A stretch of DNA of 64,000 nt from positions 1 to 64,000 of IMG/VR virus record IMGVR_UViG_3300025536_000001; one strand, 5' to 3'. This document shows positions 22,524 to 39,124 of the stretch, in pieces. The translations under genes were made by a program, and so were the position numbers. The stretch comes from a virus. The notes under the pieces are model-generated. The model made no database searches and was not told where the DNA came from. It saw nothing but the letters and a program-made list of their open reading frames with translations. How positions within the stretch are numbered: position 1 is the stretch's first letter; the number at the start of each line of letters is the position of its first letter.

Positions 22524-22536
22524 GTTAGAGTCTAAC
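22524..22536. repeat. GTTAGAnTCTAAC palindrome, copy 1 (n=G), in the leader of the first early gene
   Basis: Exact match. Flanks extend it to GGTTAGAGTCTAACC. It closes an 11-codon leader ORF (22500-22535). Confidence 0.95.
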
Positions 22537-22557
22537 CTTTTTAATGGAGTGAAAAAC

Positions 22558-23046
22558 ATGACTGCTAAAAAAATCGACGTAAAATCTAATTTGAAAGCTA
22601 TTAATACGGCTTTTGAAAATCTAGCTTCTGCCGACTCGGTAAAAAAAGGCGCGGTTGCTATTATCGCAAACAATAGCTTTGCATTGCTTCAATCAGGCGA
22701 CTTAAATGCTCTCGCTGAATTGCAGGCCATACAAAATAACAAGGCGCTTAATTCGTCCGGCAAGTCGGCAATTTCCCAAGCAAAAAGCGTATTCAAAGCT
22801 AATCCCGATTTTACGGGAAGCATTTTGACTGAAGCAAAGCGCATGAGAGACGAAAAACGAGCTGCTGAAAAAGCGAAAGAAGCAGAAGCAGAAGCAGCGA
22901 AAAAATCCGCTCCAGTCATTCCAATGTCTGAGCAGGTAACAAAGTATCTTCTGCACATCCGGGACACAGATAAGGAGACGTTCGCTGCGATTATGGCAAG
23001 CGTCCTCCCGAAAACCGCAGCGGTCAAAACCAAAAAAGCCGCGTAA
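22558..23046 (+). CDS. First early protein, Lys/Ala-rich (162 aa)
   Basis: ATG 22558 after GGAGTG. C-terminal AEKAKEAEAEAAKK...KTAAVKTKKAA is basic and low-complexity. The longer track start lies upstream of the leader palindrome and is unlikely. Confidence 0.6.
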   Translation: MTAKKIDVKSNLKAINTAFENLASADSVKKGAVAIIANNSFALLQSGDLNALAELQAIQNNKALNSSGKSAISQAKSVFKANPDFTGSILTEAKRMRDEKRAAEKAKEAEAEAAKKSAPVIPMSEQVTKYLLHIRDTDKETFAAIMASVLPKTAAVKTKKAA

Positions 23047-23061
23047 TATCAACCACTTAGC

Positions 23062-23101
23062 AGGGCGCCGTCCTCACCGGCGGCGCCCTCGCTATCTTTT
23101 T
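23062..23101 (+). terminator. Possible terminator / attenuator
   Basis: AGGGCGCCG and CGGCGCCCT form a 9-bp stem. The T-run starts 6 nt after the stem, so the structure is imperfect. Confidence 0.45.
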
Positions 23102-23129
23102 GCTCAAACATTTTTCATGGAGAAAAATT

Positions 23130-23645
23130 ATGAATTTCCAAAAAGCCAAAATTCTCGTTGCCCAAGCGCGTACATTTTCTGACCCCTACACTTTTCTGGT
23201 CAACTCGATGGCCGGCGCTCGTAATGCCGAAGAACTCGCGTACCCGCTCTGCGCCTATCTCGAGTTAGACTCTAACGCGGTAGTGCCCCAGACTCCCATG
23301 TTCGTATCCGCCATGACCATCATTGAGAATGCGCGGTATTACGAGGCACAGGCTTTCCTGCACAAGCTTGGGGTCCTGCAGACCGGCACCGCCCGTTCTC
23401 TCCTCTCAGAACTGCCCAGAAGCGCCCTGCAGGGGCCCAGGGACACCCTTGTCTCAAAGTATGAGCCAGACATCTCACCATCTGATATGATGCGCAAAGA
23501 AGCCGCGCAGCAGCGTTCTCTGACTGGTTCTGGTGGTCATATCCTGAAATCGATCAAGAAGCGTAAGTTCGGGGCCCCGGACGACAGGGTGTTCTCCCAC
23601 TCAAAGACCGCATTCACAATCAAAACCTCAGGAGGGTTGATGTAA
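23130..23645 (+). CDS. Early hypothetical protein (171 aa)
   Basis: ATG 23130 after GGAGAA. Contains palindrome copy 2 in frame (LELDSNAV). Confidence 0.6.
   Translation: MNFQKAKILVAQARTFSDPYTFLVNSMAGARNAEELAYPLCAYLELDSNAVVPQTPMFVSAMTIIENARYYEAQAFLHKLGVLQTGTARSLLSELPRSALQGPRDTLVSKYEPDISPSDMMRKEAAQQRSLTGSGGHILKSIKKRKFGAPDDRVFSHSKTAFTIKTSGGLM
23264..23276. repeat. GTTAGAnTCTAAC palindrome, copy 2 (n=C), inside a CDS
   Basis: Exact match, read as L-D-S-N. Confidence 0.95.
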
Positions 23646-23652
23646 TCGCCAC

Positions 23653-23769
23653 GGGCACCCTCCCCGACTCCATGCGGGTCTCGAGGGTGCCCCGCTTGAC
23701 GGGCACCGTCCGTATTCTGCGCGACACGCGCCACACCCTGTGTGCGTGATGCCGTTACGGACGGTGCCC
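23653..23769 (+). other. Nested long hairpins built from GGGCACC-type motifs
   Basis: GGGCACCCTC (23653-62) pairs with GAGGGTGCCC (23683-92). GGGCACCGTCCGT (23701-13) pairs with ACGGACGGTGCCC (23757-69). The second loop holds GCGCG-aca-CGCGC and CACAC-cct-GTGTG mini-hairpins. Confidence 0.7.
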
Positions 23770-23799
23770 GGATTGCGTTGCATGCTGATATAGCAGTTT

Positions 23800-23812
23800 G
23801 TTAGAGTCTAAC
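23800..23812. repeat. GTTAGAnTCTAAC palindrome, copy 3 (n=G), intergenic
   Basis: Exact match, 17 nt upstream of the parS site. Confidence 0.95.
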
Positions 23813-23828
23813 CTAATGCCATACCCAT

Positions 23829-23844
23829 TGTTTCACGTGAAACA
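23829..23844. promoter_or_regulatory. parS: Canonical parS site TGTTTCACGTGAAACA
   Basis: Exact match to the palindromic chromosomal parS consensus (TGTTNCACGTGAAACA). Flanks extend it to the 20-bp palindrome ATTGTTTCACGTGAAACAAT (23827-23846). Confidence 0.8.
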
Positions 23845-23867
23845 ATCGTCAGAACTCGCAAACCATT

Positions 23868-23907
23868 TTAACTCGCCGAATTAACTCGCCCATCAGTTTA
23901 ACTCGCC
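23868..23907 (+). repeat. Three direct TTAACTCGCC repeats (iteron-like)
   Basis: Copies at 23868-77, 23881-90 and 23898-907, plus a degenerate AGAACTCGCA at 23851-60. An AT-rich tract of about 450 bp follows. Confidence 0.8.
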
Positions 23908-24382
23908 GGTTTAGGCTGGGGAGGGTGCCCTCACACCGTTGTGCTATCTATTTGACATAGCGAAGCAGATACAATAACTTTCCATATTTTATACTCTTTG
24001 TATTCTATTTTTTATATATAATATAGATATAGTATAAAAGAGATACCATTCAAAAAATTATGAAAATACCCTTGACCCTGGAATTGGAAAATAAAGTGTA
24101 GTACACAGTGAATCGCCTATAAGTGAGATTTCACCATTTATTTATAATACACTATTATGACTAAAAATGTTAACGATTAGGGCACCATCCCCCTGATTTC
24201 TCTCATCTATTTTTTTCACCTTTTTTTTCATTTTCCTTAAAAATGACTTCCAATAACACGAAGTTATCTTACACTTTTTGAGCCTTTTTTGAAAACTCAA
24301 AAATGAGGTACTATAGCACCACTTTTATTCTTTTCCACTAACATTATGACGGATTATCAATATTATTTAATTACAAAATTTT

Positions 24383-24395
24383 GTTAGATTCTAAC
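24383..24395. repeat. GTTAGAnTCTAAC palindrome, copy 4 (n=T), intergenic
   Basis: Exact match. Flanks TT...AA extend the symmetry to 17 bp. Confidence 0.95.
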
Positions 24396-24440
24396 AAGAC
24401 TACGAATAATATTTAATCCATAATAATCCCATTTCTCTCA

Positions 24441-24469
24441 TTGACCCTACCTAAAAAGTGTATTACACT
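24441..24469 (+). promoter_or_regulatory. Candidate promoter overlapping a GTGTAnTACAC palindrome
   Basis: TTGACC, 17 nt, TACACT. The spacer and -10 contain AGTGTAtTACACT (24458-24470). A related TTGACCCT...GTGTAgTACAC module lies at 24072-24106. Confidence 0.4.
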
Positions 24470-24509
24470 AGCCAACATATCTCCACTTACAATTCACAAA
24501 GGATTACAT

Positions 24510-25247
24510 ATGAAAAGCGAAGACGGATACTTAGGGTTCTACGGCCTGTCTCACTACAAACCAGAGAAATTCGAACCCGCAATCCCTAAGGTAATGAAGA
24601 AACACATTCTGGTTTTACCTGAATGGACGGAGCCTTCCAATTTTCGCCTAATGGAATGCGCGGAGCGCCGGGCGCTGATGGGCACCCTCCGTGATACCTC
24701 TGTCACTACCTTCGAATATAACCTCCCCTGGGTGTGGTTTGGGGGCTACACCACGAAGCGGAAGCATGCAACCTACCATGAGGGCAGCACCATCCGTCCC
24801 GTTGCGCGTAGCCTGTTCGAAATCGCATTCGGAGAGACGCCCTTCATTCAGGGGCGCCGTATGTATTCTATCCGCAAGAGGATGCCGCGTATCATGCCGG
24901 TAGAGGGATTCTATCTCAGCGATGTAAACCCGTTTCACTACATGCCGGCTGGACTCGGCCATTATCGAGAGAACGTAATAGGGTGGATGAACCGTACCTA
25001 CCTGCCGCACAGTGATGCCAGTAAAGCTGACCGCTTCAAGAAATGGGTATTCGAGAACCGCATGCGGTACTGTTTCGACGATGTGTTCGACGGGCATGTG
25101 CAGTGTGAGGATGATACTTGGGTGGACAATGTACTCGCACTCGTCGTGCGCGAAGGAAAGGACTTCAGCCGTGAAGTAATAAAAGAACTCATGGACAGGT
25201 ACAAGGCATTACCCAACAGCCGAATACTCGACCACCTGGATTTTTGA
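24510..25247 (+). CDS. Early protein with a degenerate His-Me finger / HNH_3-like region (tentative)
   Basis: 245 aa from ATG 24510. PVARSLFEIAFGE...VEGFYLSDVNPFHYMP resembles the homing-endonuclease pattern (fG.iP...H.C.N..CvNP.HL) but lacks the Cys/His ligands. Confidence 0.4.
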   Translation: MKSEDGYLGFYGLSHYKPEKFEPAIPKVMKKHILVLPEWTEPSNFRLMECAERRALMGTLRDTSVTTFEYNLPWVWFGGYTTKRKHATYHEGSTIRPVARSLFEIAFGETPFIQGRRMYSIRKRMPRIMPVEGFYLSDVNPFHYMPAGLGHYRENVIGWMNRTYLPHSDASKADRFKKWVFENRMRYCFDDVFDGHVQCEDDTWVDNVLALVVREGKDFSREVIKELMDRYKALPNSRILDHLDF

Positions 25248-25275
25248 AACACTAAGGGAATAAAGGAGGTACTAA

Positions 25276-25521
25276 ATGAGCTTAGTAATTATGATGCGTG
25301 AGCGTCATCTCGTGAATACCGACCCGCAGCGCCGTTGCTATTGGGGTGTGAATGCAAAGGAAGAATTGCAGTGGCAACCTTGGGAAGTCCTGGAATACAC
25401 GAAAGCTGAGCACTCAGAGGAGCGCCTGAAGTTCTGGCGTAATCTTAATGATTACGCTGTGAGCCAGCGTGGTAAGGGCGCTAGAACGGAGTTCAAGGTC
25501 GTGGAGGCAACAGATTGTTAG
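25276..25521 (+). CDS. Early hypothetical protein (81 aa)
   Basis: AAGGAGG SD. The stop codon TAG is supplied by palindrome copy 5. Confidence 0.65.
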   Translation: MSLVIMMRERHLVNTDPQRRCYWGVNAKEELQWQPWEVLEYTKAEHSEERLKFWRNLNDYAVSQRGKGARTEFKVVEATDC

Positions 25522-25575
25522 ATTCTAACAAGGGCACCCTCCCCATTGAGGGAATAAACAAAGGAGAACGAAATG
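25517..25575 (+). repeat. Intergenic cassette A: palindrome copy 5 (n=T) + GGGCACCCTCCCC + SD + ATG
   Basis: gttagattctaacaagggcaccctccccattgagggaataaacaaaggagaacgaaatg is nearly identical to cassette B at 25868-25928. Confidence 0.9.
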
Positions 25576-25872
25576 GCTGCAGAATTTATCTATGAAATCC
25601 TCCCAGGTATTATTACCAAGGAGAAACTTAACAGTCAGCTGAGAATGTGGCAGGACAACGACCGGGTCAGAAACGGCCATCAGGAAGGTTATTCAGGGGA
25701 TTGGCAAACTGTGAATGAAATAAAGCTTCATCCCGGAGTCGTAATGGGCAATAACGAAGCATCCAAAATAGCCCAGAACTTAGCCGAGAAATGGCAATTT
25801 GGGTATGCTGTCCATTATATGGACACAGAGAAGGGCGCCATGACTTATGTGGGCGCCTGGGCTGCGTGTTAG
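25573..25872 (+). CDS. Early hypothetical protein (99 aa)
   Basis: GGAGAA SD inside cassette A. The stop TAG is supplied by palindrome copy 6. Confidence 0.65.
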   Translation: MAAEFIYEILPGIITKEKLNSQLRMWQDNDRVRNGHQEGYSGDWQTVNEIKLHPGVVMGNNEASKIAQNLAEKWQFGYAVHYMDTEKGAMTYVGAWAAC

Positions 25873-25928
25873 ATTCTAACTGATGGGCACCCTCCCCATT
25901 GAGGGCAACAACAAAGGAGAACGAAATG
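25868..25928 (+). repeat. Intergenic cassette B: palindrome copy 6 (n=T) + GGGCACCCTCCCC + SD + ATG
   Basis: gttagattctaactgatgggcaccctccccattgagggcaacaacaaaggagaacgaaatg. Confidence 0.9.
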
Positions 25929-26312
25929 GCGACAGAAGAACAAGTTTGCTGCAGGGAAAAACTCAGCGATAAAATCGGGATGAAAGCTGCACAACAGGTG
26001 CAGGACGATTTGGATGCGCAAGCAAAAGTGGGACGAGTCTCATTTAGCACAAACTCAGCTCCGTTGGAGGCCTTGGTTTTAAATCTTGAGGAGCGCATGA
26101 GAATGTTAGAAATCCGAAGTGATGAGGTTGGGGATTCAATCACCAACCTGGACAATCGTCTCGGGTATCTTGAGGAAAAGAGGATGAAGAATGTGTCAAG
26201 CTATATCGACTGCATCAAGTTGGTTCGTTCCCTCTCAGGACTCGGCTTGAAGGCGTCAAAGGACGTGGTCGATACGCTGAAGGAGCGAGGGTACATCAAT
26301 GCGGATATCTAA
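25926..26312 (+). CDS. Early protein with a ribosomal L7/L12 C-terminal-domain-like segment
   Basis: 128 aa from ATG 25926. IDCIKLVRSLSGLGLKASKDVVDTLKERG resembles the L7/L12 segment [20 protein letters not shown] (recall). Confidence 0.5.
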   Translation: MATEEQVCCREKLSDKIGMKAAQQVQDDLDAQAKVGRVSFSTNSAPLEALVLNLEERMRMLEIRSDEVGDSITNLDNRLGYLEEKRMKNVSSYIDCIKLVRSLSGLGLKASKDVVDTLKERGYINADI

Positions 26313-26712
26313 AATCAACCCTGCGCGTAACCTCGACCCGCTTTACTCAGCCTACACCCTGGCTGTGCACACTATGGGAGCCTATCCCCATAAGTCCAAG
26401 GTCAGCGGCAAGGAGTTCATCGAGGGGCGTTATCGAAAGGCTGTGGCCATCGCCCATAAAATGGGCATGGTCACCCGAATCGGGAACGTGGAGCGTGAGC
26501 TTCCGGCGGCTGAGTTCTGCCAGGAGCTCAAGTGCCTGTTCGATTACGTGACCTCTGAGTATGACGGGGAGGCATTCGCCTATCTCCTGAGGGTACTCAA
26601 GTACCTCACCAAGAGGCGTCCGCCTCTCAAGCCAGTCTTCATGAATTGGGACTGGTGGAGGCAACTGCGTGATATCAACAAGGTGATAAGGGAGAAACAA
26701 AATGCTCAATGA
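26299..26712 (+). CDS. Early hypothetical protein (137 aa)
   Basis: ORF track. Overlaps the upstream stop by 14 nt. Confidence 0.55.
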   Translation: MRISKINPARNLDPLYSAYTLAVHTMGAYPHKSKVSGKEFIEGRYRKAVAIAHKMGMVTRIGNVERELPAAEFCQELKCLFDYVTSEYDGEAFAYLLRVLKYLTKRRPPLKPVFMNWDWWRQLRDINKVIREKQNAQ

Positions 26713-26842
26713 GTGGGAGAGAAAACTTATCGCCGATATCTTGAGGATGATATGGGCAATCCACAACAACGATGTTGACCATGCGAAGCTAGACCGCGAT
26801 ATCACCAAGTATCTTGTCCAACTTCAAGGACCACCACACTAA
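26702..26842 (+). CDS. Small early ORF (46 aa)
   Basis: Own translation: MLNEWERKLIADILRMIWAIHNNDVDHAKLDRDITKYLVQLQGPPH. GGGAGAAACAAAATG context. Confidence 0.45.
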   Translation: MLNEWERKLIADILRMIWAIHNNDVDHAKLDRDITKYLVQLQGPPH

Positions 26843-26853
26843 GGAGAAACAAA

Positions 26854-27072
26854 ATGATTGACCAACCTGCTGACTACGATGAGGCCGTGAGTGTTATCAA
26901 GATTCTCATGGAGACCATAGGTCTTAAAGACCAGACCATTAAGTCAATGCGTGAGTCGCTTGATATACATGAGCAGAACATGAAGACTTATATCTCTATC
27001 ATGAATAAGGTAGCTGATATAGGCGACAAGCTGTCCCAGCTTCGGGATATCGCAGCAAGGACAGAGAAATGA
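26854..27072 (+). CDS. Early hypothetical protein (72 aa)
   Basis: AAGGAGAAACAAAATG context. ORF track. Confidence 0.6.
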   Translation: MIDQPADYDEAVSVIKILMETIGLKDQTIKSMRESLDIHEQNMKTYISIMNKVADIGDKLSQLRDIAARTEK

Positions 27073-27320
27073 CCGACAAATTCAAACCGGTAACACCAGA
27101 AGAATTTGATAACTTCCTGCTAGCATATCCACGCCCATTAGACAGACACTTGACGGCGATTTGCGAACCACCGCAGATTTCATACAATGATTTCACTTTA
27201 GGTAATTGGCCTGATAGCGTTGTGGCGTCGTTTTGTATCGACGATTACCTGGAAACCGATGCCAAGAAATACAGGCTTGTTGATGGCAGAAAAGAGACAA
27301 GACACGTGGTGTTAAAATGA
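27069..27320 (+). CDS. Early hypothetical protein (83 aa)
   Basis: ATGA coupling to the upstream gene. ORF track. Confidence 0.6.
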   Translation: MTDKFKPVTPEEFDNFLLAYPRPLDRHLTAICEPPQISYNDFTLGNWPDSVVASFCIDDYLETDAKKYRLVDGRKETRHVVLK

Positions 27321-27448
27321 CAGATAAACTAACAGAGAGCCCGTGCCGATGGTTTAAGGCTTACAAGGCAATCAGCGCCCAGCTGTAGCTGCCTACCATA
27401 CCATCAGAAATACACAAAAGCATGGGCTTAAAAACTATGGAGAAGGAA

Positions 27449-28177
27449 ATGACCGAGTTGCAGAAGGCGATTGATTTGATAAGAGCCCACGACACGATTA
27501 TTGCCGAAGGTATCGGTGCAGATGTGTGGCAGGCAATTACAAAACTCATCGAATTGGAGGCCGTCAACAAGAAACTGAAAACTCAACTGATATTATCAGA
27601 GTATGGTGACGTTGTTGAGATGCTCCAGGGCGACATTCGAGAATTTAAGGCGCGGATTAAGGAACTGGAAGAGGAGAAACCATATGTAAATTTTGAGGAT
27701 GAGCTTAGTAGAAGGCTCCTTGCTGGGTGGGTGCGCCTTCCTACCGCGGCGGTCATAGTTGCAGCGGAGAAGATGGATGGGCTGATATCGACATTACGAT
27801 CAATTGAGGAGAACAGTCGTGATCCAGCGAGTTGTGCAATTGCTGGAGAAGCCTTAAACAGAATGGGAGAAAACAAAATGTTAGACTCTAACATAATGTG
27901 GAGGCCGGTCTTCAACTCCAAGTTTGGCCAATGGAGGATTTGTCACAACGGGGGGTGTGAGGTAGGCGAGACCAGTATCATTGCCACCGTTCACACATCT
28001 TTGGATGAGGAAACTGACGAGAAGACTGCACATCTGATAGCCTCGGCTCCCTATTTGTTGGTGGCGTTGGAGGAGGCAGTATGGAGGCACGAAGACGGTC
28101 AGCAGGGATATCAGCTTCACCCTGAAAACTATGAACGCGCGAAACAAGCAATCAAGAGATCGAAAGGAGAAATATAA
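27449..28177 (+). CDS. Early hypothetical coiled-coil protein; possible in-frame internal start at 27878
   Basis: Track ORF trimmed to ATG 27449 (GGAGAAGG SD). An internal GGGAGAAAACAAAATG at 27864-27880 duplicates the SD/spacer used by neighbouring genes. Confidence 0.55.
   Translation: MTELQKAIDLIRAHDTIIAEGIGADVWQAITKLIELEAVNKKLKTQLILSEYGDVVEMLQGDIREFKARIKELEEEKPYVNFEDELSRRLLAGWVRLPTAAVIVAAEKMDGLISTLRSIEENSRDPASCAIAGEALNRMGENKMLDSNIMWRPVFNSKFGQWRICHNGGCEVGETSIIATVHTSLDEETDEKTAHLIASAPYLLVALEEAVWRHEDGQQGYQLHPENYERAKQAIKRSKGEI
27880..27892. repeat. GTTAGAnTCTAAC palindrome, copy 7 (n=C), inside a CDS and overlapping an internal ATG
   Basis: Exact match. Flanks give the 17-bp palindrome ATGTTAGACTCTAACAT (27878-27894). 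Read as M-L-D-S-N. Confidence 0.95.
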
Positions 28178-28389: not shown

Positions 28390-28390
28390 G

Positions 28391-28639: not shown

Positions 28640-28758
28640 TGGGCTCGATAAAGAGGCGCATATTCAAATTGCTTGATGTGTGCTCAATAGCCATCATAAT
28701 CTATGGGCCGTTCTTACTAGCCTATTTGGTCAAACTATTATGGGAGTGGATGAGATGA
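28636..28758 (+). CDS. Tiny membrane peptide (40 aa)
   Basis: Own translation: MMGSIKRRIFKLLDVCSIAIIIYGPFLLAYLVKLLWEWMR. ATGA coupling at both ends. Confidence 0.45.
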   Translation: MMGSIKRRIFKLLDVCSIAIIIYGPFLLAYLVKLLWEWMR

Positions 28759-28994
28759 GCAACGCAGTCGAGTCCATCGAGCAGGTGCTTCAGGAGCATG
28801 CTGAGCGAGGACTGGAGATACGTGAACTCCAGCGAACAATCAGGAACCAGGACACCCGCATTGTCATGCTCGGTCAACTCCTGACTACCTGCATCGGTTT
28901 GTTAGACTCTAACAAAATCAGCTTGGATGAGCAGTCAAAGCTTGATAGGGTGGGGCTGACTGCGTTAGGTCTAATTTGCAAAAAGGAGAAATGA
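28755..28994 (+). CDS. Early hypothetical protein (79 aa)
   Basis: Track ORF trimmed to ATG 28755. Contains palindrome copy 8 in frame (GLLDSNKI). Confidence 0.55.
   Translation: MSNAVESIEQVLQEHAERGLEIRELQRTIRNQDTRIVMLGQLLTTCIGLLDSNKISLDEQSKLDRVGLTALGLICKKEK
28901..28913. repeat. GTTAGAnTCTAAC palindrome, copy 8 (n=C), inside a CDS
   Basis: Exact match. TT...AA flanks extend the symmetry. Confidence 0.95.
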
Positions 28995-29184: not shown

Positions 29185-29327
29185 CCGCACTGCTGTTTTG
29201 CATCAATATTCTTATCTGGTCTATTGGCTGGAAATCCAATCATGAGAAGGTCACCATGATTATATCGACCTTCATGGTTCTTATGGTTCTTATGAACCTT
29301 GCTGGTCTGCTCCTGGTGCTGCAATGA
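29181..29327 (+). CDS. Tiny two-TM membrane peptide (48 aa)
   Basis: Own translation: MTALLFCINILIWSIGWKSNHEKVTMIISTFMVLMVLMNLAGLLLVLQ. ATGA coupling at both ends. Confidence 0.45.
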   Translation: MTALLFCINILIWSIGWKSNHEKVTMIISTFMVLMVLMNLAGLLLVLQ

Positions 29328-29812
29328 AACTGCTTTTTCAGGATAAGCTCACTGAACTGTGGTCGGGTGATTCCACAAAATACACAAACATCGGGGCTAA
29401 CTTCGTGCTTACCAATCCATATGCGGTGATACCTCACCACCTTCGGTCATGTCCAATGCTGGTATGTGACTTCGTAGAGAGAGAAGCTCTCGCAGAGCAA
29501 CGGTGCGGTTCCAAGCTCGAACTGGTTAGCAAATGGCATCTGGGCAAGGCGGCTATCTGGGTTGGCAATGCCCCGAATATGAAGGTCGATCTATCTGACC
29601 TTGTGTCAGAGGGCATCTTCTTTCCTGAAGCGCTCCCCGCGCGGCTTCTGGCAGCCTACATCAAAATCTTCCCGAAGATGGTTGTGTGGGATGGGTTCAT
29701 GGGGCGCGGTACGGTCGGTAGGGTATGCCGGCGCAGAAATATACCATTTATTGGTATAGAGAAGGATGGGCTTCTCGCAAATCAAGCCTATCAATACGTG
29801 TTAGGAGAGTGA
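29324..29812 (+). CDS. Miniature beta-class (motif IV before motif I, CcrM/HinfI order) DNA methyltransferase-like protein
   Basis: 162 aa. The C-terminus FFPEALPARLLAAYIKIFPKMVVWDGFMGRGTVGRVCRRRNIPFIGIEKD fits the N4/N6-MTase AdoMet region (FP..L...VlDPF.GSGT...gR.fiGiE). N-terminal NFVLTNPYA occupies the DPPY position but is degenerate. Confidence 0.55.
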   Translation: MKLLFQDKLTELWSGDSTKYTNIGANFVLTNPYAVIPHHLRSCPMLVCDFVEREALAEQRCGSKLELVSKWHLGKAAIWVGNAPNMKVDLSDLVSEGIFFPEALPARLLAAYIKIFPKMVVWDGFMGRGTVGRVCRRRNIPFIGIEKDGLLANQAYQYVLGE

Positions 29813-30235: not shown

Positions 30236-30661
30236 ATGACCAGCAACAGCGCACAAATGTCTCTCGAAGAGAAACTCGTCCAGCATATTAAGACGACGAG
30301 CTTCATGCTCCTCATCGACGATGAGGACGCAATCACCGAGCTTACACGCCGGGCTTTGACGGAGGCTCTGGTTCAAAAGAGGAGAGTGAGCACCAATTCA
30401 TATGGTGGATACACCGAGCATGACTCTCCTGTGGTTGAGGCTGCACGGAACGTGGCGACCAAGGCTCTCGAGAAGCTTATGCAGGATGAGATTGATAAAC
30501 TTCTGGCAACCCCTGATACGCTGATTCAGCTGCGCAAAGCGATGATGATGATGCTACCAAAAATTCTTGAGGAGAAGATTGGTGCAGTCTATCAAGGTAT
30601 CGTCCAGCACTCCTCAAATGAGGCGCTTGAAATTCTTAGAAATGGAGGGTTCATAAAATGA
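30236..30661 (+). CDS. Early hypothetical protein (141 aa)
   Basis: GGGAG SD. ORF track. Confidence 0.6.
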   Translation: MTSNSAQMSLEEKLVQHIKTTSFMLLIDDEDAITELTRRALTEALVQKRRVSTNSYGGYTEHDSPVVEAARNVATKALEKLMQDEIDKLLATPDTLIQLRKAMMMMLPKILEEKIGAVYQGIVQHSSNEALEILRNGGFIK

Positions 30662-30912
30662 CGTTGTATCCAAAAAGATATCGAAAGACTGACCAAAACA
30701 TTCTACGTGCTAAACGTGCGAAGTCTGCTCTCAACCTTTACTCGGGTGGTCTGTACGGAAAGCCGGCTCCGATCACTGAGGAGAATATCGCAGATTTGGT
30801 CTGTGACCTTCAGCATCTCGCGCGTCAACATCAGATTAATTGGCAGGATGTACAGGCTACTGCCATAGTTCATTTTGAGACTGAGGCACAAGACCAGTCA
30901 GGTCTACGTTAG
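30658..30912 (+). CDS. Early hypothetical protein (84 aa)
   Basis: ATGA coupling. The stop TAG is supplied by palindrome copy 9. Confidence 0.6.
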   Translation: MTLYPKRYRKTDQNILRAKRAKSALNLYSGGLYGKPAPITEENIADLVCDLQHLARQHQINWQDVQATAIVHFETEAQDQSGLR

Positions 30913-30920
30913 AGTCTAAC
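30908..30920. repeat. GTTAGAnTCTAAC palindrome, copy 9 (n=G), at a gene end
   Basis: Exact match. GGGCACCCTCC follows 5 nt later. Confidence 0.95.
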
Positions 30921-31476: not shown

Positions 31477-31678
31477 GCCTACCTTTCGGATGCGAGGCGA
31501 TGCAGTTCTGTCATTCTGGACAGCAGACCCAGCACCTTGGGGAGACGAGATTGTCCATCGACGATGGAGGCATGCCACTCCGTTGGAGTGGGAAGAGGCT
31601 GGAAAGAAGCCTAGGCGCCCTACGCCGAGGCGGATACTTCAGAAGGACGGAAAGAGGTACTACGTTGTTAGATTCTAA
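31463..31678 (+). CDS. Small basic early protein (71 aa)
   Basis: Track ORF trimmed to ATG 31463 (AGGAGAGAAGG upstream). The stop TAA is supplied by palindrome copy 10. Confidence 0.5.
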   Translation: MEKPEPTFRMRGDAVLSFWTADPAPWGDEIVHRRWRHATPLEWEEAGKKPRRPTPRRILQKDGKRYYVVRF

Positions 31679-31679
31679 C
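31667..31679. repeat. GTTAGAnTCTAAC palindrome, copy 10 (n=T), at a gene end and 4 nt before the next SD
   Basis: Exact match. TT...AA flanks. GAAGGAGAGAAACATG follows. Confidence 0.95.
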
Positions 31680-32683: not shown

Positions 32684-32992
32684 ATGACGCTAACAAAGAG
32701 GATTCTGGGCACCCTCCGTAAGGCAAGAAACGGACTGAACGGCCTTCAGGTTGATGAACTCATCAACGAAAACCCTGATGATTTCTATGCTGATACACAT
32801 GTTGTGCTCACAACGCTTGTCCGATGTGTTAAGCGAGGGTTTGTCCTCAACGAGGGAAAAACTAAATGTAACCACTGCCTGGCGGTTCTCAACAACTATA
32901 GGATTACTGAGGAGGGGATAATTTTTCATGAAAAAGGATGCAGCGTTAGAAAAGAAGTTCAACGAGAAAGCAAAGAAGACCAAACACTGTAA
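32684..32992 (+). CDS. Winged-helix-like putative DNA-binding protein
   Basis: 102 aa, AAGGAGG SD. LRKARNGLNGLQVDELI...VLTTLVRCVKRGFVLNEGK looks like a MarR/wHTH-type recognition unit (weak). Contains GGGCACCCTCC in frame (LGTLR). Confidence 0.45.
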   Translation: MTLTKRILGTLRKARNGLNGLQVDELINENPDDFYADTHVVLTTLVRCVKRGFVLNEGKTKCNHCLAVLNNYRITEEGIIFHEKGCSVRKEVQRESKEDQTL

Positions 32993-33068
32993 CCATTGTG
33001 GTAAGACAGTGCCTAAGAGCCACGTTACAAAGTGGTGCAAATACGCTCAACATGTGAAAGGGAATTGA
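32928..33068 (+). CDS. Small basic Cys/His ORF (46 aa), overlaps the previous gene by 65 nt
   Basis: Own translation: MKKDAALEKKFNEKAKKTKHCNHCGKTVPKSHVTKWCKYAQHVKGN. GAGGAGGGG upstream. Confidence 0.3.
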   Translation: MKKDAALEKKFNEKAKKTKHCNHCGKTVPKSHVTKWCKYAQHVKGN

Positions 33069-33069
33069 T

Positions 33070-33309
33070 ATGGCTGAAGACCAGAGACCTGTGCTTGAAG
33101 ACAAACACAATGAGGCTATACGTGCCGGCTTGGCCGTTGTCGCCAAGAACAACAACATGAACCAGAAGGCCAAGATGTATATGCAGTTTGGCGTCATTGT
33201 GGCGCTTGAGGGCATGGGCATCCAAATCCCGCCAGTCTGGTACATCATGACGATGGCTGGCCGTGAAATCTTCACGGTAGAGAAACCGAAGAAGGAGAAA
33301 CGCGCATGA
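33070..33309 (+). CDS. Early hypothetical protein (79 aa)
   Basis: ORF track. Confidence 0.5.
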   Translation: MAEDQRPVLEDKHNEAIRAGLAVVAKNNNMNQKAKMYMQFGVIVALEGMGIQIPPVWYIMTMAGREIFTVEKPKKEKRA

Positions 33310-33785
33310 CTTACGAAGTACAGCACCTTGTATCTGGGTGTTGGTTCAACAATTGGGTGGTGTATGACAGCGCTATGACCCCTCATCCACAGGAGTTCCC
33401 CACAGTCACTGAGGCGCAGGCCGCGTTGGACGAGTTCTTTGAGGATATTGCCGAGTATATCCGCGAAGAGACCCGCAACCCAGATGAAGGTTACTCACGA
33501 AGCGAGTTCAGGATTGTACCTGTTGGTACAGGCAGCGATACTGACGTGGATGATTTAAGCAGACAGGAGGAAACAGTGGCTAAATCAGCGAAAGAACTTT
33601 GGGATGAAATCTATGCTTATCTCCAGGAGACGGAACAGGAGTCGTTCGACGTATTTATTGATGATGAGGGCGGCGACCCAGACAACCACATCCTGGGGAA
33701 GGCGCATGAATTCAATGCCCTCTTCAACCACAAGTTAGATTCTAACAAAACGGAGGAAGAGGATGACAATAATCGTTGCTCTTAA
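33306..33785 (+). CDS. Acidic early protein (159 aa)
   Basis: ORF track. ATGA coupling. Contains palindrome copy 11 in frame (HKLDSNKT). Confidence 0.6.
   Translation: MTYEVQHLVSGCWFNNWVVYDSAMTPHPQEFPTVTEAQAALDEFFEDIAEYIREETRNPDEGYSRSEFRIVPVGTGSDTDVDDLSRQEETVAKSAKELWDEIYAYLQETEQESFDVFIDDEGGDPDNHILGKAHEFNALFNHKLDSNKTEEEDDNNRCS
33734..33746. repeat. GTTAGAnTCTAAC palindrome, copy 11 (n=T), inside a CDS and 5 nt before the SD of the next gene
   Basis: Exact match. CGGAGGAAGAGGATG (start 33763) follows. Confidence 0.95.
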
Positions 33786-34226: not shown

Positions 34227-34660
34227 CAGCAGAGTTCACCGGCGATCAGATCAACGAGATGATTTCTAAAATCCAGAAATATGAAGCAGAGCGTTCTCTG
34301 CTCATTCAACAACTCAAGGAACAGACAGAGTTAATTCGCAAGCCTATTCCGCTCCGCATGCTTCTCCTCCATGGCCGGGTAGACCCAGAGGCATCTCCTG
34401 GGGATGATTGGGGTTTCGATGGGCCGACTATCGAGGGAATTGTCTATGTGCATGCGGTGTATCGAAATCAGGAAACCGTTGGTTTCATTACACAAGCCCA
34501 GGCGGAATACGCTCATCGTCAGACAGGGTGGGATTTTTTCGATGAAAAAACCTTGGAAATAAGGTACTATGACGATCTGGTCGTGATTGACCCACCAGGT
34601 CAACCCTCATCGAAAAAATTCTTTGGGGACAAAGAACTCCAGATCATATCTAAGGAGTAA
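34223..34660 (+). CDS. Early hypothetical protein (145 aa)
   Basis: ORF track. Overlapping start. Confidence 0.6.
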   Translation: MTAEFTGDQINEMISKIQKYEAERSLLIQQLKEQTELIRKPIPLRMLLLHGRVDPEASPGDDWGFDGPTIEGIVYVHAVYRNQETVGFITQAQAEYAHRQTGWDFFDEKTLEIRYYDDLVVIDPPGQPSSKKFFGDKELQIISKE

Positions 34661-34661
34661 C

Positions 34662-34874
34662 ATGGATACCGAACTCTCAATACTCCTTCCCCTCGCGAAG
34701 GAGAGAAAGCCTTTTGACCCTCTGGAGTTCATTGCGACTCTTGACAGGTACACTGATGCTAAATTCCAGTATTTGAGGTATCAAGCTGATGGGCAGCGTT
34801 CCATGCTTGAGCATTTCAAAGACCAATCAGACCTAGAGCTGGGGCGTCTGATTGAAATCATATCCCGGCGTTAA
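34662..34874 (+). CDS. Early hypothetical protein (70 aa)
   Basis: Track ORF trimmed to ATG 34662 after TAAGGAG. Confidence 0.55.
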   Translation: MDTELSILLPLAKERKPFDPLEFIATLDRYTDAKFQYLRYQADGQRSMLEHFKDQSDLELGRLIEIISRR

Positions 34875-34890
34875 CAAAGGAGAACTGAAT

Positions 34891-35295
34891 ATGGGAGACA
34901 GAGCACTCGTTATTTTCGTCAGCAAAGACCGTTCCGAGGTATCACCGGTGGTGTATTCTCACTGGCAAGGTGAAAGCATTCCTCAGTTTATTGAGGATCT
35001 GAAAGTTTACATGGGGGAGAGAAAGGATGATGTGCAGTATGCGACTGCAAGATTCATCGGTTTGCTCCACGCATCAGTCGACGACTCACCGCTCGGCCTG
35101 GGTGTCTGGAATACTCCAGATAACATCAAGGAAGCAGCAAAAAACCTGGAGTTGATATCCTCAATCAACACGCTGGAAGAATATTCCCACGGCGATGCCG
35201 GTGTTATCATCGTCAAAGCTTTCGACTTCTCGTGGAGGGCATTTGGCGGGTATCTAAAGGACGTTGCAAATGATGATGGGGGTAAAGCTGCTTGA
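34891..35295 (+). CDS. Early hypothetical protein (134 aa)
   Basis: Track ORF trimmed to ATG 34891 after AAAGGAGAA. Confidence 0.6.
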   Translation: MGDRALVIFVSKDRSEVSPVVYSHWQGESIPQFIEDLKVYMGERKDDVQYATARFIGLLHASVDDSPLGLGVWNTPDNIKEAAKNLELISSINTLEEYSHGDAGVIIVKAFDFSWRAFGGYLKDVANDDGGKAA

Positions 35296-35756
35296 AGATA
35301 GCAGCCCTCATAATCCTGTTCCTGTTGTTAGACTCTAACACGGCTAATCCCGCGTTGGACGTCCAGCAACGGGAACTGGATTGCCTGGCGACCGCGATCT
35401 ACCATGAGGCGAGGGGAGAACCTACTCGTGGTCAGGTCGCGGTGGCTGCGGTTATTGAGAACCGCAGGCGCTCTGGGTTATATCCGGGTACCTATTGTGG
35501 GGTCGTCTATCAGAAAGCGCAGTTCACTGGTATCAAGCATGCACGTCCCAGATTTGGATCGAGAGCTTGGGCCCAGGCCATGGACATTGCCTCAAAAACA
35601 TTCAAGAAGAAACTGTCTGATCCCACGAAAGGTGCGCTCTGGTATTTTGCACACGACAAAATTCCGATGCCTGTGTGGGTCTCGGGAAAGGTATTGACGG
35701 TGCGTATCAACAATCACTCGTTCTACAAAACAGGAGGGAAATATGGGACGACCTAA
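35292..35756 (+). CDS. Secreted SleB-type cell-wall hydrolase (Hydrolase_2 family)
   Basis: CLATAIYHEARGEPTRGQVAVAAVIENRRRSGLYPGTYCGVVYQKAQFTG fits the SleB signature. The N-terminus MKIAALIILFLLL is signal-like. TTG start overlaps the upstream stop. Confidence 0.75.
   Translation: MKIAALIILFLLLDSNTANPALDVQQRELDCLATAIYHEARGEPTRGQVAVAAVIENRRRSGLYPGTYCGVVYQKAQFTGIKHARPRFGSRAWAQAMDIASKTFKKKLSDPTKGALWYFAHDKIPMPVWVSGKVLTVRINNHSFYKTGGKYGTT
35327..35339. repeat. GTTAGAnTCTAAC palindrome, copy 12 (n=C), inside the signal-peptide coding region
   Basis: Exact match, read as L-D-S-N. Confidence 0.95.
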
Positions 35757-35874
35757 GAAGGTGAAAGACCAAGGGCGCCTGGCGCCTTTGGGGGACAAGA
35801 GAGACTGGGCTCTTATCCAGAAGGAGCCTGGATACTGGAAAGGTTTCTGGAACACCAGAAATCCAAAGAAGTAA
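35743..35874 (+). CDS. Small basic ORF (43 aa)
   Basis: Own translation: MGRPKKVKDQGRLAPLGDKRDWALIQKEPGYWKGFWNTRNPKK. AGGAGGGAA SD. Confidence 0.4.
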   Translation: MGRPKKVKDQGRLAPLGDKRDWALIQKEPGYWKGFWNTRNPKK

Positions 35875-35902
35875 CTTAACCACTAACAAATGGAGAACTG
35901 AT

Positions 35903-38257
35903 ATGATAATCAATGAAGCAAAGCGTTTTCTTCAAACGGACGGGCTTGACAACGTCCCCCGTCAATTTTCTATCCAACAAGGCTCAAAGGCTTTCGAAAT
36001 CTTGAGTTCGAACATCTATTCGGACAAACCACTCGCCGTGGTTCGTGAGTATGCTTGCAACGCCTGGGACAGCCATGTTGAGGCAGGCAAAACTGATGTA
36101 CCTATTGAGGTACACATCCCGAACACCCTTGAGCCATATTTCTACATTAGGGATTTTGGGGTCGGCATCTCTGAGGACAATATCTATTCCATCTATACGG
36201 TCTACTTCAATTCCACGAAGGGCAGCAACAACCAACTCATTGGGGCGCTCGGATTGGGATGCAAAAGCGCCTTCGCCTATGTAGATCAGTTCATGATCGA
36301 GTCTATCCACGGAGGAAGAAAGAAGTCCTATGCCGCATTCATCGGGCCTGATGGAACACCGACAGTCACAAAGGTGAACGATGAAGTTTCGTTAGAGTCT
36401 AACGGAGTAAAGATCCAGGTACCGGTGAAACCTTCCGACTTCGGCGTCTTTCTTGAGAAGACCAGGGATATCTTCAAGCGGTTCCCTGTTATGCCGGTGT
36501 TGGTGGGCACTGATGAGAAGATCGAGCCTATAGATTATGTGTTCAAGTCGGTAAACTTTGCTATGAAGGAAACCGGCGGTAGCTACTATTACTCATACCG
36601 GGGGCAGGGTGCAGTTGCCGTTCAGGGCAACGTCCCATACCCCATCAAGCTCGATGTAGTAAGTGATCAGCTTGATGATCTTGAGAGGAAAATCCTCGAA
36701 AGCTCTGCGTTTGATCTCTTCTTCCCGCTTGGGAGTCTCAATATCTCAGCCTCGCGCGAGGCTCTGCACTATGATGAGAACACGAAGAAGTCTATCGTGG
36801 CAGTTGTGAAGGAGATCAAATCCAAGATCAAGGAGGAGTTCGAAAAGCAGATTGCAGAGGCGCCAACCCTCTGGAAGGCAAAGCAGATTGCTCTCTATAC
36901 TCAACCTGGAGAGAACAACGGCGGATTGACTTCCTTTGCTGGTTTCATCCGCGGTCAGACGTTCCTCTATCAAGGACAGGAAATCACACCTGATAAAATC
37001 CAAATATCCGTGAAGGATTTCGGTGTAGATACAGAGGAGCTGTTATCCGGTCAGTACTACATAGATCGGATGGATGATTATCGCCATCTGCAAAAGAGAA
37101 TCTGCAGGTATAAACGCCACGATATGATCGGTGTTTATCCAAAGGAGAATACCTTTATCGTCTTCGACGATAAGAAGGTTCCCTCGTTCAAGAGGACAGT
37201 GATATATTACTTCGCAGACCTTCTGGACTCGAAGAAGATCGAGAGAGACTTCAACATCTACATGGTCAAGGTTCCTGTCGGGCAAGAAGCGGCAGTCCTT
37301 GAAGCGTTGGGGAACCCGCCGGCTTCCCAGGTTTACTATACCTCGAATATGCCGGAACCACCGAAGAAAGTGAACAAGAAGGGAGACCCTTCCACCTACA
37401 AAGCCATTCGTCAGGATAAGATGAACGCAGTAATAGAACTGCGCCAAATGGTTCACAATAACAACTGGCGATTTGATGACTGGACGGCGCCGGGGATGAG
37501 AAAGTCTGTCAAGTTCGGTGATGGGGGCTTCTACATGAAGGTCAATAATCACCTGTTCCTGACCGACACGGTTATGTTTGATGAAAACAAAAAACCGAGA
37601 GCATCTTATGGTGACGACCTTATTGTTCAAGGTATGAGGGCTGCTATCAATATGGGTCTTGTTCCTAAAAACCTATATGCTGTGAACAATACTGAGGAGG
37701 CTGCTCTCAAAGAATCTGGGGCTGATTGGAAGAACTTTCTTGATGTGCTGCCAGGGCTTGTTGAGCAGCATCTTCTTGTACCAGAGAACATGAGGAAGGT
37801 CTCACTTTATAAGTCTACCGACCAGTTGCAGAAATCATTCGGCTCAATGGAAAGGTTGATCAGAACTATTTTCAAGAATGACCTCTCCAAAGGTAAACTT
37901 AAACCTGCTTTGGAAAGTTTATGGTCGGCCTATCAAAATTCTTTTCCTACTTTGGGTAAAGATAAAATGTTCACGTTCCCAGAACGGGAACGATGGGATC
38001 AAATCGAAAGCCTTGAACTGCTGGTTCAAGGTAAGACCAAGAAACCTCTAAGAATAAAATCCTCCGAGGAGGGTGATAAGGTGCTTTATATTCTGGATAA
38101 CTATTATCCCCAGCTGATTCCTCTGGCATATAACTGCAGCTTTCACTACTATTCTGAAACTTCAGAGAAGGTGACTCTGTTAAAAGAGTTCATCGAGCTC
38201 TGTGAGAGTGTCTACAAACGTCCTAAACCACAACCAAAGAAGGAGGCTACAATATGA
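35903..38257 (+). CDS. rIIA: rIIA-like protein (N-terminal GHKL/HATPase_c fold)
   Basis: 784 aa. It has an N-box-like REYACNAWDS, a G1-like IRDFGVGIS and a G2-like GALGLGCKSAF, as in T4 rIIA. An rIIB-like gene follows. Confidence 0.7.
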   Translation: MIINEAKRFLQTDGLDNVPRQFSIQQGSKAFEILSSNIYSDKPLAVVREYACNAWDSHVEAGKTDVPIEVHIPNTLEPYFYIRDFGVGISEDNIYSIYTVYFNSTKGSNNQLIGALGLGCKSAFAYVDQFMIESIHGGRKKSYAAFIGPDGTPTVTKVNDEVSLESNGVKIQVPVKPSDFGVFLEKTRDIFKRFPVMPVLVGTDEKIEPIDYVFKSVNFAMKETGGSYYYSYRGQGAVAVQGNVPYPIKLDVVSDQLDDLERKILESSAFDLFFPLGSLNISASREALHYDENTKKSIVAVVKEIKSKIKEEFEKQIAEAPTLWKAKQIALYTQPGENNGGLTSFAGFIRGQTFLYQGQEITPDKIQISVKDFGVDTEELLSGQYYIDRMDDYRHLQKRICRYKRHDMIGVYPKENTFIVFDDKKVPSFKRTVIYYFADLLDSKKIERDFNIYMVKVPVGQEAAVLEALGNPPASQVYYTSNMPEPPKKVNKKGDPSTYKAIRQDKMNAVIELRQMVHNNNWRFDDWTAPGMRKSVKFGDGGFYMKVNNHLFLTDTVMFDENKKPRASYGDDLIVQGMRAAINMGLVPKNLYAVNNTEEAALKESGADWKNFLDVLPGLVEQHLLVPENMRKVSLYKSTDQLQKSFGSMERLIRTIFKNDLSKGKLKPALESLWSAYQNSFPTLGKDKMFTFPERERWDQIESLELLVQGKTKKPLRIKSSEEGDKVLYILDNYYPQLIPLAYNCSFHYYSETSEKVTLLKEFIELCESVYKRPKPQPKKEATI
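36391..36403. repeat. GTTAGAnTCTAAC palindrome, copy 13 (n=G), inside rIIA-like CDS
   Basis: Exact match, read as L-E-S-N. C...G flanks extend the symmetry to 15 bp. Confidence 0.95.
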
Positions 38258-39072
38258 TCCCGTATATTTTTACATCCGATGCTATCTCCCTGTTCCTTCC
38301 CGATAACAAGTCGTTTTCGATCAGGAAAGACCACAAGTATTTCAAGGCGCTTGTGGAGGCTATCAATGCGTCAGACGATACCGCTGTTCTGAATGTCGTC
38401 GACATGGCGCAGAAGATCGCAAACTTCGTCGAGGGAAAGGTGGTTGTCCAGAATGGGCAACTCTTCTATGGAGATGAGCTTCTCAGCGGGGCGATCGTTG
38501 ATCGTATCCTGCAGGGTATCTCGATGGGGTTGGAGTCGAAGTCCTATATCCTGTTCCTTGAGAACCTGATGAAGAATCCTTCCTTTCAATCTCGGAAGGA
38601 ACTTTATCTCTTCCTGGAGGCATGTGATCTACCAATCACTGAGGATGGTAGGTTCATCGCCTACAAGTCAGTGAGGGATAACTACTATGACGCGCACAGC
38701 GGCAAGTACCTCAATAAGGTTGGCGCCATCATCGAGATGCCCCGGCATCTCGTCAATGATGATCGTCAGCAGACATGCTCCGCCGGCCTTCACGTGTGCT
38801 CCAGGGCCTACGGGAAGTTCTCCCAGCGGCTCCTGCTTGTGGCAGTCAATCCCGCGGACGTTGTGTCAGTTCCCTATGACTACAACAACGCGAAGATGAG
38901 GGTCTGCAAGTATGAGGTCTTGAAGGAGATCGAAGAGTTCCAATCCTTCTCAGAAGACCCGGTCTGGGGCGATGATGAGGAAGAAGAAGGCGAGATCGAT
39001 ACCTGCCCGGAGTGCGGGTCGTCCCCAGAAACCGGAGCGTATTGCTCAAGCTGCGGGGCGTCATTGTCATAA
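38254..39072 (+). CDS. rIIB: rIIB-like protein with C-terminal zinc ribbon
   Basis: 272 aa. FLENLMKNPS, ITEDGRFIAYKSV, MPRHLVNDDRQQTCSAGLHVCS and DVVSVPYDYNNAKMRVCKYEV match T4 rIIB blocks as I recall them. It also has CPECG...CSSCG. Confidence 0.7.
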   Translation: MIPYIFTSDAISLFLPDNKSFSIRKDHKYFKALVEAINASDDTAVLNVVDMAQKIANFVEGKVVVQNGQLFYGDELLSGAIVDRILQGISMGLESKSYILFLENLMKNPSFQSRKELYLFLEACDLPITEDGRFIAYKSVRDNYYDAHSGKYLNKVGAIIEMPRHLVNDDRQQTCSAGLHVCSRAYGKFSQRLLLVAVNPADVVSVPYDYNNAKMRVCKYEVLKEIEEFQSFSEDPVWGDDEEEEGEIDTCPECGSSPETGAYCSSCGASLS

Positions 39073-39111
39073 TACTAACTAATCTCAGAAAATTTTTCAA
39101 AAATTTCTGGT

Positions 39112-39124
39112 GTTAGAGTCTAAC
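39112..39124. repeat. GTTAGAnTCTAAC palindrome, copy 14 (n=G), intergenic, last copy
   Basis: Exact match, immediately before a terminator-like hairpin. Confidence 0.95.

Follow-up and report, generated by a model that had tools for sequence, protein, structure and literature searches.

The genome region and its genes

The DNA considered here, the first 64,000 nucleotides (nt) of the IMG/VR virus record IMGVR_UViG_3300025536_000001 (the window), is part of the 81,140-bp ENA contig k141_298295, and one block of small genes within it carries 14 exact copies of a 13-base palindrome, GTTAGAnTCTAAC (scan string GTTAGANTCTAAC). PHROG and Pfam profile searches of the open reading frames (ORFs) of the window found on the minus strand the genes for the tape-measure protein, the large terminase and the portal, and identified a P4-type primase and a thymidylate synthase together with a methyltransferase, a glycosyltransferase-like protein, an SNF2 helicase, DNA polymerase A, SbcCD and MazG/MazZ-like proteins. 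The same scans detected no RNA polymerase, no ParB and no helix-turn-helix (HTH) regulator. The palindromes occupy a run of ~40 small ORFan genes of which the last are rIIA and rIIB.

By their terminases the closest named phages are Achromobacter phage JWF (42% identity), Pseudoalteromonas KB12-38, Caulobacter Seuss, Xylophilus Lumi and Acinetobacter EAb13/Mystique, and the nearest named relatives are all ~80-kb siphoviruses. In JWF and Seuss the counterpart small-gene block begins within the direct terminal repeat, that is, at the leading genome end, and it is because of this analogy that we call the block in the window early, with a presumed role in host takeover. Among 50,697 phage records megablast found nothing that matches the block, and a search for its rIIA in 5.8 billion proteins returned, besides identical contigs, nothing closer than 38% identity.

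An all-or-none palindrome in one block

The palindrome had been noticed in a sequence-only reading of the window, and an exact scan agreed with all 14 of the start positions which that reading gave. All copies are within 22524-39124, spaced 351-2721 bp apart (mean 1.28 kb), and the claim that they far exceed chance was borne out by 100 dinucleotide shuffles, in which the expected number of exact copies was 0.00. When up to two mismatches were allowed, the window yielded zero sites beyond the exact 14, against a chance expectation of 2.15, and it is for this reason that we describe the palindrome as all-or-none. Even its halves are scarce: GTTAGA half-sites outside the full sites number 11, against 27.3 +/- 5.4 expected. 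That no exact copy lies elsewhere in the window also held, and the 13.4 kb of k141_298295 beyond the window, which carries tail genes, has zero copies even at one mismatch; with at least 77.4 of the 81.1 kb scanned, confinement to the block holds for at least that much. The near-misses previously listed do exist, at slightly different positions: the half-sites are at 32945, 44820 and 45008, and a degenerate copy that lacks the centre base, GTTAGGTCTAAT, is at 28964-28975 (not from 28966), directly 5' of the Shine-Dalgarno (SD) sequence and ATG (28996) of the following gene.

The motif contains TAG and TAA in two frames and leaves the third open, and its placement with respect to genes, as already reported, is of three kinds. 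Four copies are intergenic, four provide the stop codon of the upstream ORF (eight of the 14 thus being intergenic or on a stop codon), and six are in frame within ORFs, where they read xxG-TTA-GAN-TCT-AAC, or L-D/E-S-N. Four of these last six are far from any start.

Among the intergenic copies, copy 1 (GTTAGAGTCTAAC, 22524-22536) is in the leader of the block, 21 nt upstream of the ATG at 22558; with its flanks it reads GGTTAGAGTCTAACC and is then followed by TTTTT. Some 130 nt before it, at the block head, is a candidate sigma70-like promoter (TTGATT-17-TATATT, 22368-22396, plus strand), a consensus match only, at 9 of 12 positions. Its presence was rightly noted, its rank was not: the strongest sigma70-like match of the region, TTCACA-17-TATAAT (11 of 12; 22247-22275, minus strand), points left, away from the block and towards a tandem repeat. 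Copy 3 (23800-23812) is in an 865-bp non-coding region, with a perfect parS 17 nt downstream, and copy 4 (24383-24395) is in AT-rich non-coding DNA upstream of the gene starting at 24510, where it overlaps the -35 element and spacer of a sigma70-like sequence, TTGTTA-18-AATAAT (24381-24410). Copy 14 (39112-39124), past rIIB, abuts the GC-rich, terminator-like hairpin at which the block ends (39125-39154, plus strand); the strong predicted fold of this hairpin and the UUUU that follows it agree with its earlier description.

Stop codons are supplied as TAG by copy 5 (25517-25529, for ORF 25276-25521), copy 6 (25868-25880, for ORF 25573-25872) and copy 9 (30908-30920, for ORF 30658-30912), each of which is followed by the 11-mer GGGCACCCTCC, with an SD sequence and an ATG coming next after copies 5 and 6. 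Copy 10 (31667-31679) supplies the stop as TAA; the following ATG is 16 nt away with GGAG between. The copies inside ORFs are copy 2 (23264-23276, in ORF 23130-23645, read as L-D-S-N), copy 7 (27880-27892, in ORF 27422-28177), copy 8 (28901-28913, in ORF 28680-28994), copy 11 (33734-33746, at the 3' end of ORF 33306-33785 and 16 nt upstream of the overlapping start at 33763), copy 12 (35327-35339, 35 nt inside ORF 35292-35756, which encodes a cell-wall hydrolase) and copy 13 (36391-36403, within rIIA, 35903-38257).

Similarity between copies ends at 13-15 bp, the flanks being unrelated, except that copies 5 and 6 share a longer intergenic module. This matters for the notion that the palindromes have no trans-acting reader and are recombination or shuffling cassettes, in the manner of the promoter-early stem-loop (PeSL) elements of T4-type phages, or mobile repeats resembling repetitive extragenic palindromic (REP) sequences or miniature inverted-repeat transposable elements (MITEs). 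The palindromes do flank small accessory ORFans in a hypervariable region, and the duplicated module of copies 5 and 6 speaks for shuffling. However, beyond that pair the stretch of similarity is shorter than homologous recombination requires, the DNA scanned outside the block has no copy and, as described below, the copies change together between lineages. The REP-like version in particular is disfavoured by the block confinement and the unrelated flanks, and we consider this whole class of explanation very unlikely.

A different palindrome in each lineage

A de novo scan for repeated palindromes was carried out on JWF, Seuss and metagenomic loci. JWF has GTTCGTnACGAAC 12 times, 10 being unique and two being in the second copy of the terminal repeat, and all are within the early block or terminal repeat; nine of the 10 unique sites end 14-26 nt upstream of a start codon with an SD sequence between, and the central TAA of some is the stop codon of the upstream gene. 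Seuss has TTTACCTnAGGTAAA at five unique early positions, overlapping ribosome-binding sites and including one before rIIA. A primase-profile scan of IMG/VR then provided 80 related loci, and nearly every one with enough DNA past the primase has there its own exact palindrome in 3-12 copies.

For a controlled count, 31 loci with at least 8 kb on either side of the primase were scored for an exact palindrome present at least three times. On the early side (8 kb) 27 of the 31 have a lineage-specific exact palindrome of 12-15 bases; on the structural side (8 kb) none of the 31 has a repeated palindrome, and shuffled early sides likewise gave none. More than 20 distinct palindromes are found across the family, with central spacers of 0-3 nt, examples being GTTCAAnTTGAAC and GTGCAGnnCTGCAC, both from Burkholderia groups, and GTGCGACnGTCGCAC, CTGCCAAnTTGGCAG, CCATATnnATATGG, TTTAACnGTTAAA, TCCCCGGCCGGGGA, TGGGGAnnTCCCCA, GTTTGTACAAAC and AGTGCAnnTGCACT. 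The motif, taken at first for a one-off, is one instance of a family-wide feature, and a scan of relatives finds lineage-specific palindromes in the same place. Judged by this comparison of sequences, the array is the local version of a trait common to ~80-kb JWF/Seuss-like siphoviruses. No description of such palindromes was found in the searchable literature, where the motif strings occur only in primers and unrelated sequences; papers on the phages JWF, Lumi and TCUP2199 are silent on them, and an earlier description is possible since the JWF genome paper fell outside the search.

Two comparisons are instructive. One relative, IMGVR_UViG_3300000970_000001, carries the window's own motif (TGTTAGAnTCTAACA) in a genome of 39% G+C, against 48% for the window. 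The central base of the 14 window copies is G five times, C four times, T five times and never A, a tally which had been correctly made; as a rule the absence of A breaks down in this relative, where two of three copies have it. A wider IMG/VR scan for TGTTAGAnTCTAACA gave nearly all its matches as single chance hits, and a helicase-centred scan missed the one contig that shares the motif. Conversely, two groups of relatives with 82% identical primases and 84% identical major capsid proteins, one group including a Burkholderia paludis element, carry different palindromes: where a gene junction is orthologous between them, GTTCAACTTGAAC in one group is matched by GTGCAGCTCTGCAC in the other. 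All the copies that a genome carries therefore change in concert, as is characteristic of sites that co-evolve with a single trans-acting reader.

Could that reader be a host protein, a hijacked transcription factor or nucleoid protein? Our scans found no phage-encoded reader, and the perfect parS of host type beside copy 3 suggests that the phage uses at least one host DNA-binding system. Against this, phages with core proteins as similar as those just mentioned differ in palindrome at the same junction, one motif is common to phages of such different base composition, and more than 20 specificities within one family fit phage immunity, not host regulons. A host reader is on this evidence improbable.

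The variety of palindromes bears most heavily on the suggestion, prompted by the GANTC core of the window motif, that the array is a methylation-sensitive switch of the CcrM/HinfI type. There is a weak match to the methylase profile PF01555 at 29324-29812, but this 162-residue ORF covers only profile positions 166-213 of 221 (the C-terminal ~48), and appears from that match to be a fragment or a stand-alone C-terminal S-adenosylmethionine-binding domain of the N6/N4 DNA methylase family. The window has 164 GANTC sites, and the 150 outside the array are evenly spread. The switch fails because relatives of the same architecture have arrays with no GANTC (GTnAC, CAAnTTG, AGnnCT and others), and it is now scarcely credible.

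Duplex DNA or RNA?

Several features of the palindromes point to duplex DNA read by a two-fold symmetric protein, at least as far as can be judged from symmetry. The arms are invariant, while the central 1-3 bases are free and found in both orientations. In every version complementarity reaches the bases next to the centre, which would be unpairable in a hairpin with a minimal loop of three, and there are motifs with no spacer at all (GTTTGTACAAAC and TCCCCGGCCGGGGA). Bases of the flanks are also symmetrically conserved, T..A in the window and AAA..TTT, GG..CC or TT..AA in relatives, mostly by identity and not by covariation.

The alternative is that the palindrome acts in RNA, as a cistron-boundary hairpin bound by a phage RNA-binding protein or endoribonuclease which would govern how early mRNAs are translated or processed, or how stable they are, much as RegA or RegB does. 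Part of its support is positional. Of 124 sites in 20 loci, 39% have an SD-preceded start no more than 50 nt beyond their end, compared with 15% for randomly placed positions (2.6-fold), the family-wide enrichment being at 10-50 nt; in Seuss and in the relative L068 the palindrome overlaps the SD sequence itself, and one relative has a CsrA homologue in its early region. Sites directly 5' of ribosome-binding sites would suit an RNA hairpin. However, enrichment at gene boundaries is equally expected of a DNA site, because a strict 13-15-mer fits most cheaply in non-coding gaps, as do the stoperators of mycobacteriophage L5 (PMC9283540), and six of the window copies are in ORFs, several of them far from starts.

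Folding gives a similarly divided picture. The flanks often lengthen the stem, to -5 to -7 kcal/mol, and some flank pairs vary yet remain complementary (L056, L072 and, as R..Y, JWF). Yet the core hairpin of the window is worth only -2.6 kcal/mol, two of the 14 contexts prefer another fold, and flanks overall conserve identity more than covariation. An invariant stem with a free loop base is the reverse of usual RNA-protein recognition, and the pairing that reaches the centre, the spacerless motifs and the central bases in both orientations have no ready place in an RNA account. A bias in the flanks between G-U and A-C on the sense strand (10 versus 4) is not significant. Altogether we regard recognition in RNA as unlikely, and the RNA-level operators that had been entertained for the window are disfavoured by the weak fold, the invariant stem and the free loop base; for site-specific nicking or cleavage, also entertained, there was no support. 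Hairpin promoters and RNA operators of the kinds represented by N4 virion RNA polymerase promoters, boxB and coat-protein operators were considered as well, and hairpin promoters fail because no phage RNA polymerase was found in 77 kb.

The position of sites before genes raises one further alternative, namely that they bind an activator or mark middle promoters inside the early block, as do T4 MotA boxes or P2 Ogr sites. Many sites do precede genes, the copy in the relative L085 occupies the spacer of a good promoter (TTGACG-18-TATAAC) and copy 4 of the window overlaps a -35-like hexamer. Such promoter-like context is sporadic, however, and neither an RNA polymerase nor a sigma factor of the phage was found in 77 kb of sequence. 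The distance from site to ATG, 10-45 nt including the SD sequence, leaves no space for a -10 element and a leader and makes it unlikely that the sites serve an activator or as promoters; we would give this reading little credence.

Proposed silencing of the early block

The explanation that we favour, with a probability of roughly one half, is an operator array: the 14 palindromes would be bound by a dimeric DNA-binding protein, encoded by the phage, which silences the early block. From comparison of sequences we infer that a protein is the reader, that the phage encodes it and that its effect is repression. The array spans the whole early block, beginning in the first leader and ending at the terminator past rIIB, with a site every ~1.3 kb, and one sequence-specific phage protein would bind each site as a symmetric dimer, the occupied sites shutting the block down. 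Copies near promoters, namely copy 1 in that leader and the two (3 and 4) of the 865-bp non-coding hub, would act as operators, as presumably would the tandem copies, spaced by 25-63 bp, which some relatives have in the non-coding DNA where their early region begins. Copies dispersed within operons would be roadblocks to elongating host RNA polymerase. Silencing could occur when early expression gives way to middle expression, or else while the phage persists as a prophage or in a carrier state, and protein and sites would co-evolve fast, giving lineage-specific palindromes much as immunity specificities arise. A consistent helical phase was looked for among tandem sites with spacings of 25-109 bp, and none was seen.

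A silencing repressor is plausible because JWF makes turbid plaques and is re-inducible by ultraviolet light from survivors (PMC3899368), and because relatives are found inside contigs of isolate genomes that exceed a phage genome in length. Three such contigs (L241, L242 and L245) belong to Inquilinus limosus MP06 (119.9 kb), to Burkholderia paludis MSh1 (290 kb) and to Sphingopyxis flava R11H (124.8 kb), and among the relatives in IMG/VR many are contigs of ~80 kb that derive from isolate genomes. The phage family is evidently able to persist in cultured cells. The JWF annotation has no integrase and no CI-type repressor.

A more ambitious form of the proposal, which we hold tentatively and as somewhat doubtful, is that JWF/Seuss-like siphoviruses share an undescribed code. 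In it a fast-evolving, perfect per-lineage palindrome present 5-14 times over the host-takeover block would be read by a protein of no known DNA-binding family, or by the small syntenic ribbon-helix-helix protein acting, unusually, at many sites, to silence the block and define immunity groups. The phages would then be temperate or in a carrier state without integrase and CI-type repressor.

Against silencing by a phage-encoded dimer stands the fruitless search for the dimer. Pfam and PHROG scans, which covered 82 ORFs of the window and, for eight relatives, 129 early ORFs, revealed no recurrent DNA-binding family, clustering of 2,281 early ORFs revealed no universal early protein, and the relative with the same motif, for which 10 kb was available, shares only the cell-wall hydrolase with the early proteins of the window. 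To these are to be added the flanks that vary and remain complementary, the enrichment before ribosome-binding sites, and the troubles of the one candidate considered below; the direction of control (repression as opposed to activation) and its timing are pure inference. Several sites are, moreover, deep inside ORFs despite the preference for gene boundaries. The dimeric DNA-binding reader over one transcription block that the sequence-only reading had proposed is favoured by the comparative evidence, with the proviso that no protein was identified.

The sole recognizable DNA-binding protein that is syntenic across the family is an Arc/TraY-like ribbon-helix-helix protein (7327-7548, plus strand), and it is a weak candidate for the reader. 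Its gene diverges from a major-tail-like gene, with an 86-bp spacer to 7241 that contains an imperfect inverted repeat of its own, TTGATTGAA-N7-TTCAACAAT. The position is kept in JWF (gp017) and ~30 metagenomic relatives, and Seuss has the gene as an ORF that its annotation omits (~15240-15630, minus strand). Classes of the beta-strand loosely follow classes of motif, an association confounded by phylogeny. JWF and the GTTCAA group have identical beta-strand contact residues and different motifs, whereas the window and its same-motif relative (L091) differ at a contact residue, N versus T. A cognate half-site is present at the gene's own promoter in only two of 11 phages.

Two other candidates were set aside. 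One is the first early gene: the family of JWF gp069 is restricted to 12 loci, and hhalign shows no homology between it and the first early gene of the window; a 165-residue protein encoded upstream of the primase is conserved in the family, though without a DNA-binding signature.

Comparison with known systems

The nearest parallel in organization is with cluster A mycobacteriophages (L5 gp71 and the TipsytheTRex repressor), in which conserved 13-mer stoperators are located at promoters and in short gene gaps, often on stop or start codons, differ between related phages like immunity specificities and have been proposed to block both initiation and elongation (PMC9283540). The window is similar in having many copies of one strict site of ~13 bp (14 exact, none with one or two mismatches), with eight of 14 intergenic or on a stop codon, though six are inside ORFs. 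In contrast, the L5 sites are asymmetric, monomer-bound, oriented with transcription and distributed genome-wide (>20), while those of the window are perfect palindromes within one block. No repressor with an HTH domain plus a stoperator domain was seen in the Pfam and PHROG scans of the window and of the relatives' early ORFs, and, unlike those of cluster A, the hosts of this phage family are Gram-negative.

The IncP plasmid RK2 offers a resemblance of another sort. Its KorA and KorB operators, GTTTAGCTAAAC and TTTAGCSGCTAAA respectively, are perfect palindromes of 12-13 bp, one with a free central base, and its ~60 kb has 7 and 12 identical KorA and KorB operators, at promoters and far from them. 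Multiple identical palindromes of this size on one element are a feature that RK2 shares with these phages, and the RK2 operators even resemble the window motif in sequence (GTT.AG..CT.AAC), a resemblance that is probably coincidental because the motifs of relatives differ. Unlike in RK2, no ParBc or KorA-like HTH protein was detected among the 82 window ORFs, and none is on record in the tail regions outside the window.

The phiC31 repressor binds conserved inverted repeats (CIRs), and the plasmid-prophage P1 has ~17-20 scattered C1 operators. Both have, as does the window, many dispersed and highly conserved sites in early or lytic regions, read there by one repressor, and the phiC31 sites are inverted repeats; the P1 operators, however, are asymmetric, and the identified repressors are unrelated. 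The operators of Arc, Mnt, MetJ and CopG are short palindromes of similar size. Arc operator half-sites contain TAGA/TCTA, as does the window motif, and there is the syntenic Arc-like gene. Unlike in ribbon-helix-helix autoregulation, that gene's own promoter is mostly without the motif, and the covariation of beta-strand and motif is unconvincing. The array would work like stoperators, phiC31 CIRs, P1 C1 operators and RK2 operators, yet belongs to none of them.

If silencing by one reader is true, one short sequence and one protein govern the whole early programme of a widespread and barely studied phage family whose hosts include Achromobacter, Burkholderia, Caulobacter, Acinetobacter, Methylobacterium and Sphingopyxis. 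The palindromes would be ready bait for the regulator and, from sequence alone, a means to delimit early regions and predict immunity groups. Orthogonal pairs of operator and reader are potentially useful in synthetic control, and the issue bears on whether these phages, some of which have been proposed for therapy, persist repressed in cells.

Other features of the region and its relatives

A second strict motif, the asymmetric 11-mer GGGCACCCTCC met above, is also confined to the early block. It has seven plus-strand copies (23653, 24680, 25532, 25885, 30926, 31049 and 32707), of which three begin 2-5 nt past a palindrome and two are inside ORFs, and is present on the minus strand at 23682-23692 and 23920-23930. 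The orientation bias recalls asymmetric stoperators, and several relatives also have a second repeated motif.

The parS that follows copy 3 is a perfect canonical 16-bp site, TGTTTCACGTGAAACA, in non-coding DNA at 23829-23844, with a chance of occurrence of ~1e-5 per window; in 1.7 Mb of related loci there are zero copies at up to two mismatches. The site suggests recruitment of host ParB, for instance to segregate an episomal phage genome. Shortly after it come three direct TAACTCGCC repeats (23869, 23882 and 23899) and then a ~480-bp AT-rich stretch (23960-24440) with several sigma70-like matches, and the repeats, AT-rich stretch and parS together look, from their arrangement, like an origin or regulatory hub.

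Genes elsewhere in the window (59225-59707, 59986-60552, 20961-21821, 43344-44093 and 45170-45829) hint at a base-modification module, with a MazZ-like dATP/dGTP diphosphohydrolase, MazG, a thymidylate-synthase-like protein, an MptE-like protein, an FkbM methyltransferase and a glycosyltransferase PHROG match; no PurZ was seen alongside them. The 129 early ORFs of relatives include, each in one member only, genes for a CsrA homologue (E = 2e-23), a JAB protein resembling RadC and a trypsin-like protease. One unrelated virus, L142 (IMGVR_UViG_3300012667_000971, 13 kb), has the window's 13-mer five times, in dense direct TCTAACAG repeats; this looks like an iteron-like array and not the palindrome system, and was discounted.

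Directly upstream of the early promoters, at 22070-22180, there are ~6 copies of a 16-bp tandem repeat, CGCCCGACACCGCCGG. Seuss has a counterpart in five copies of a CCGCTCGCGGGTC repeat beside its terminal-repeat boundary, and the tandem repeat may be a sign that the physical end of the genome is near.

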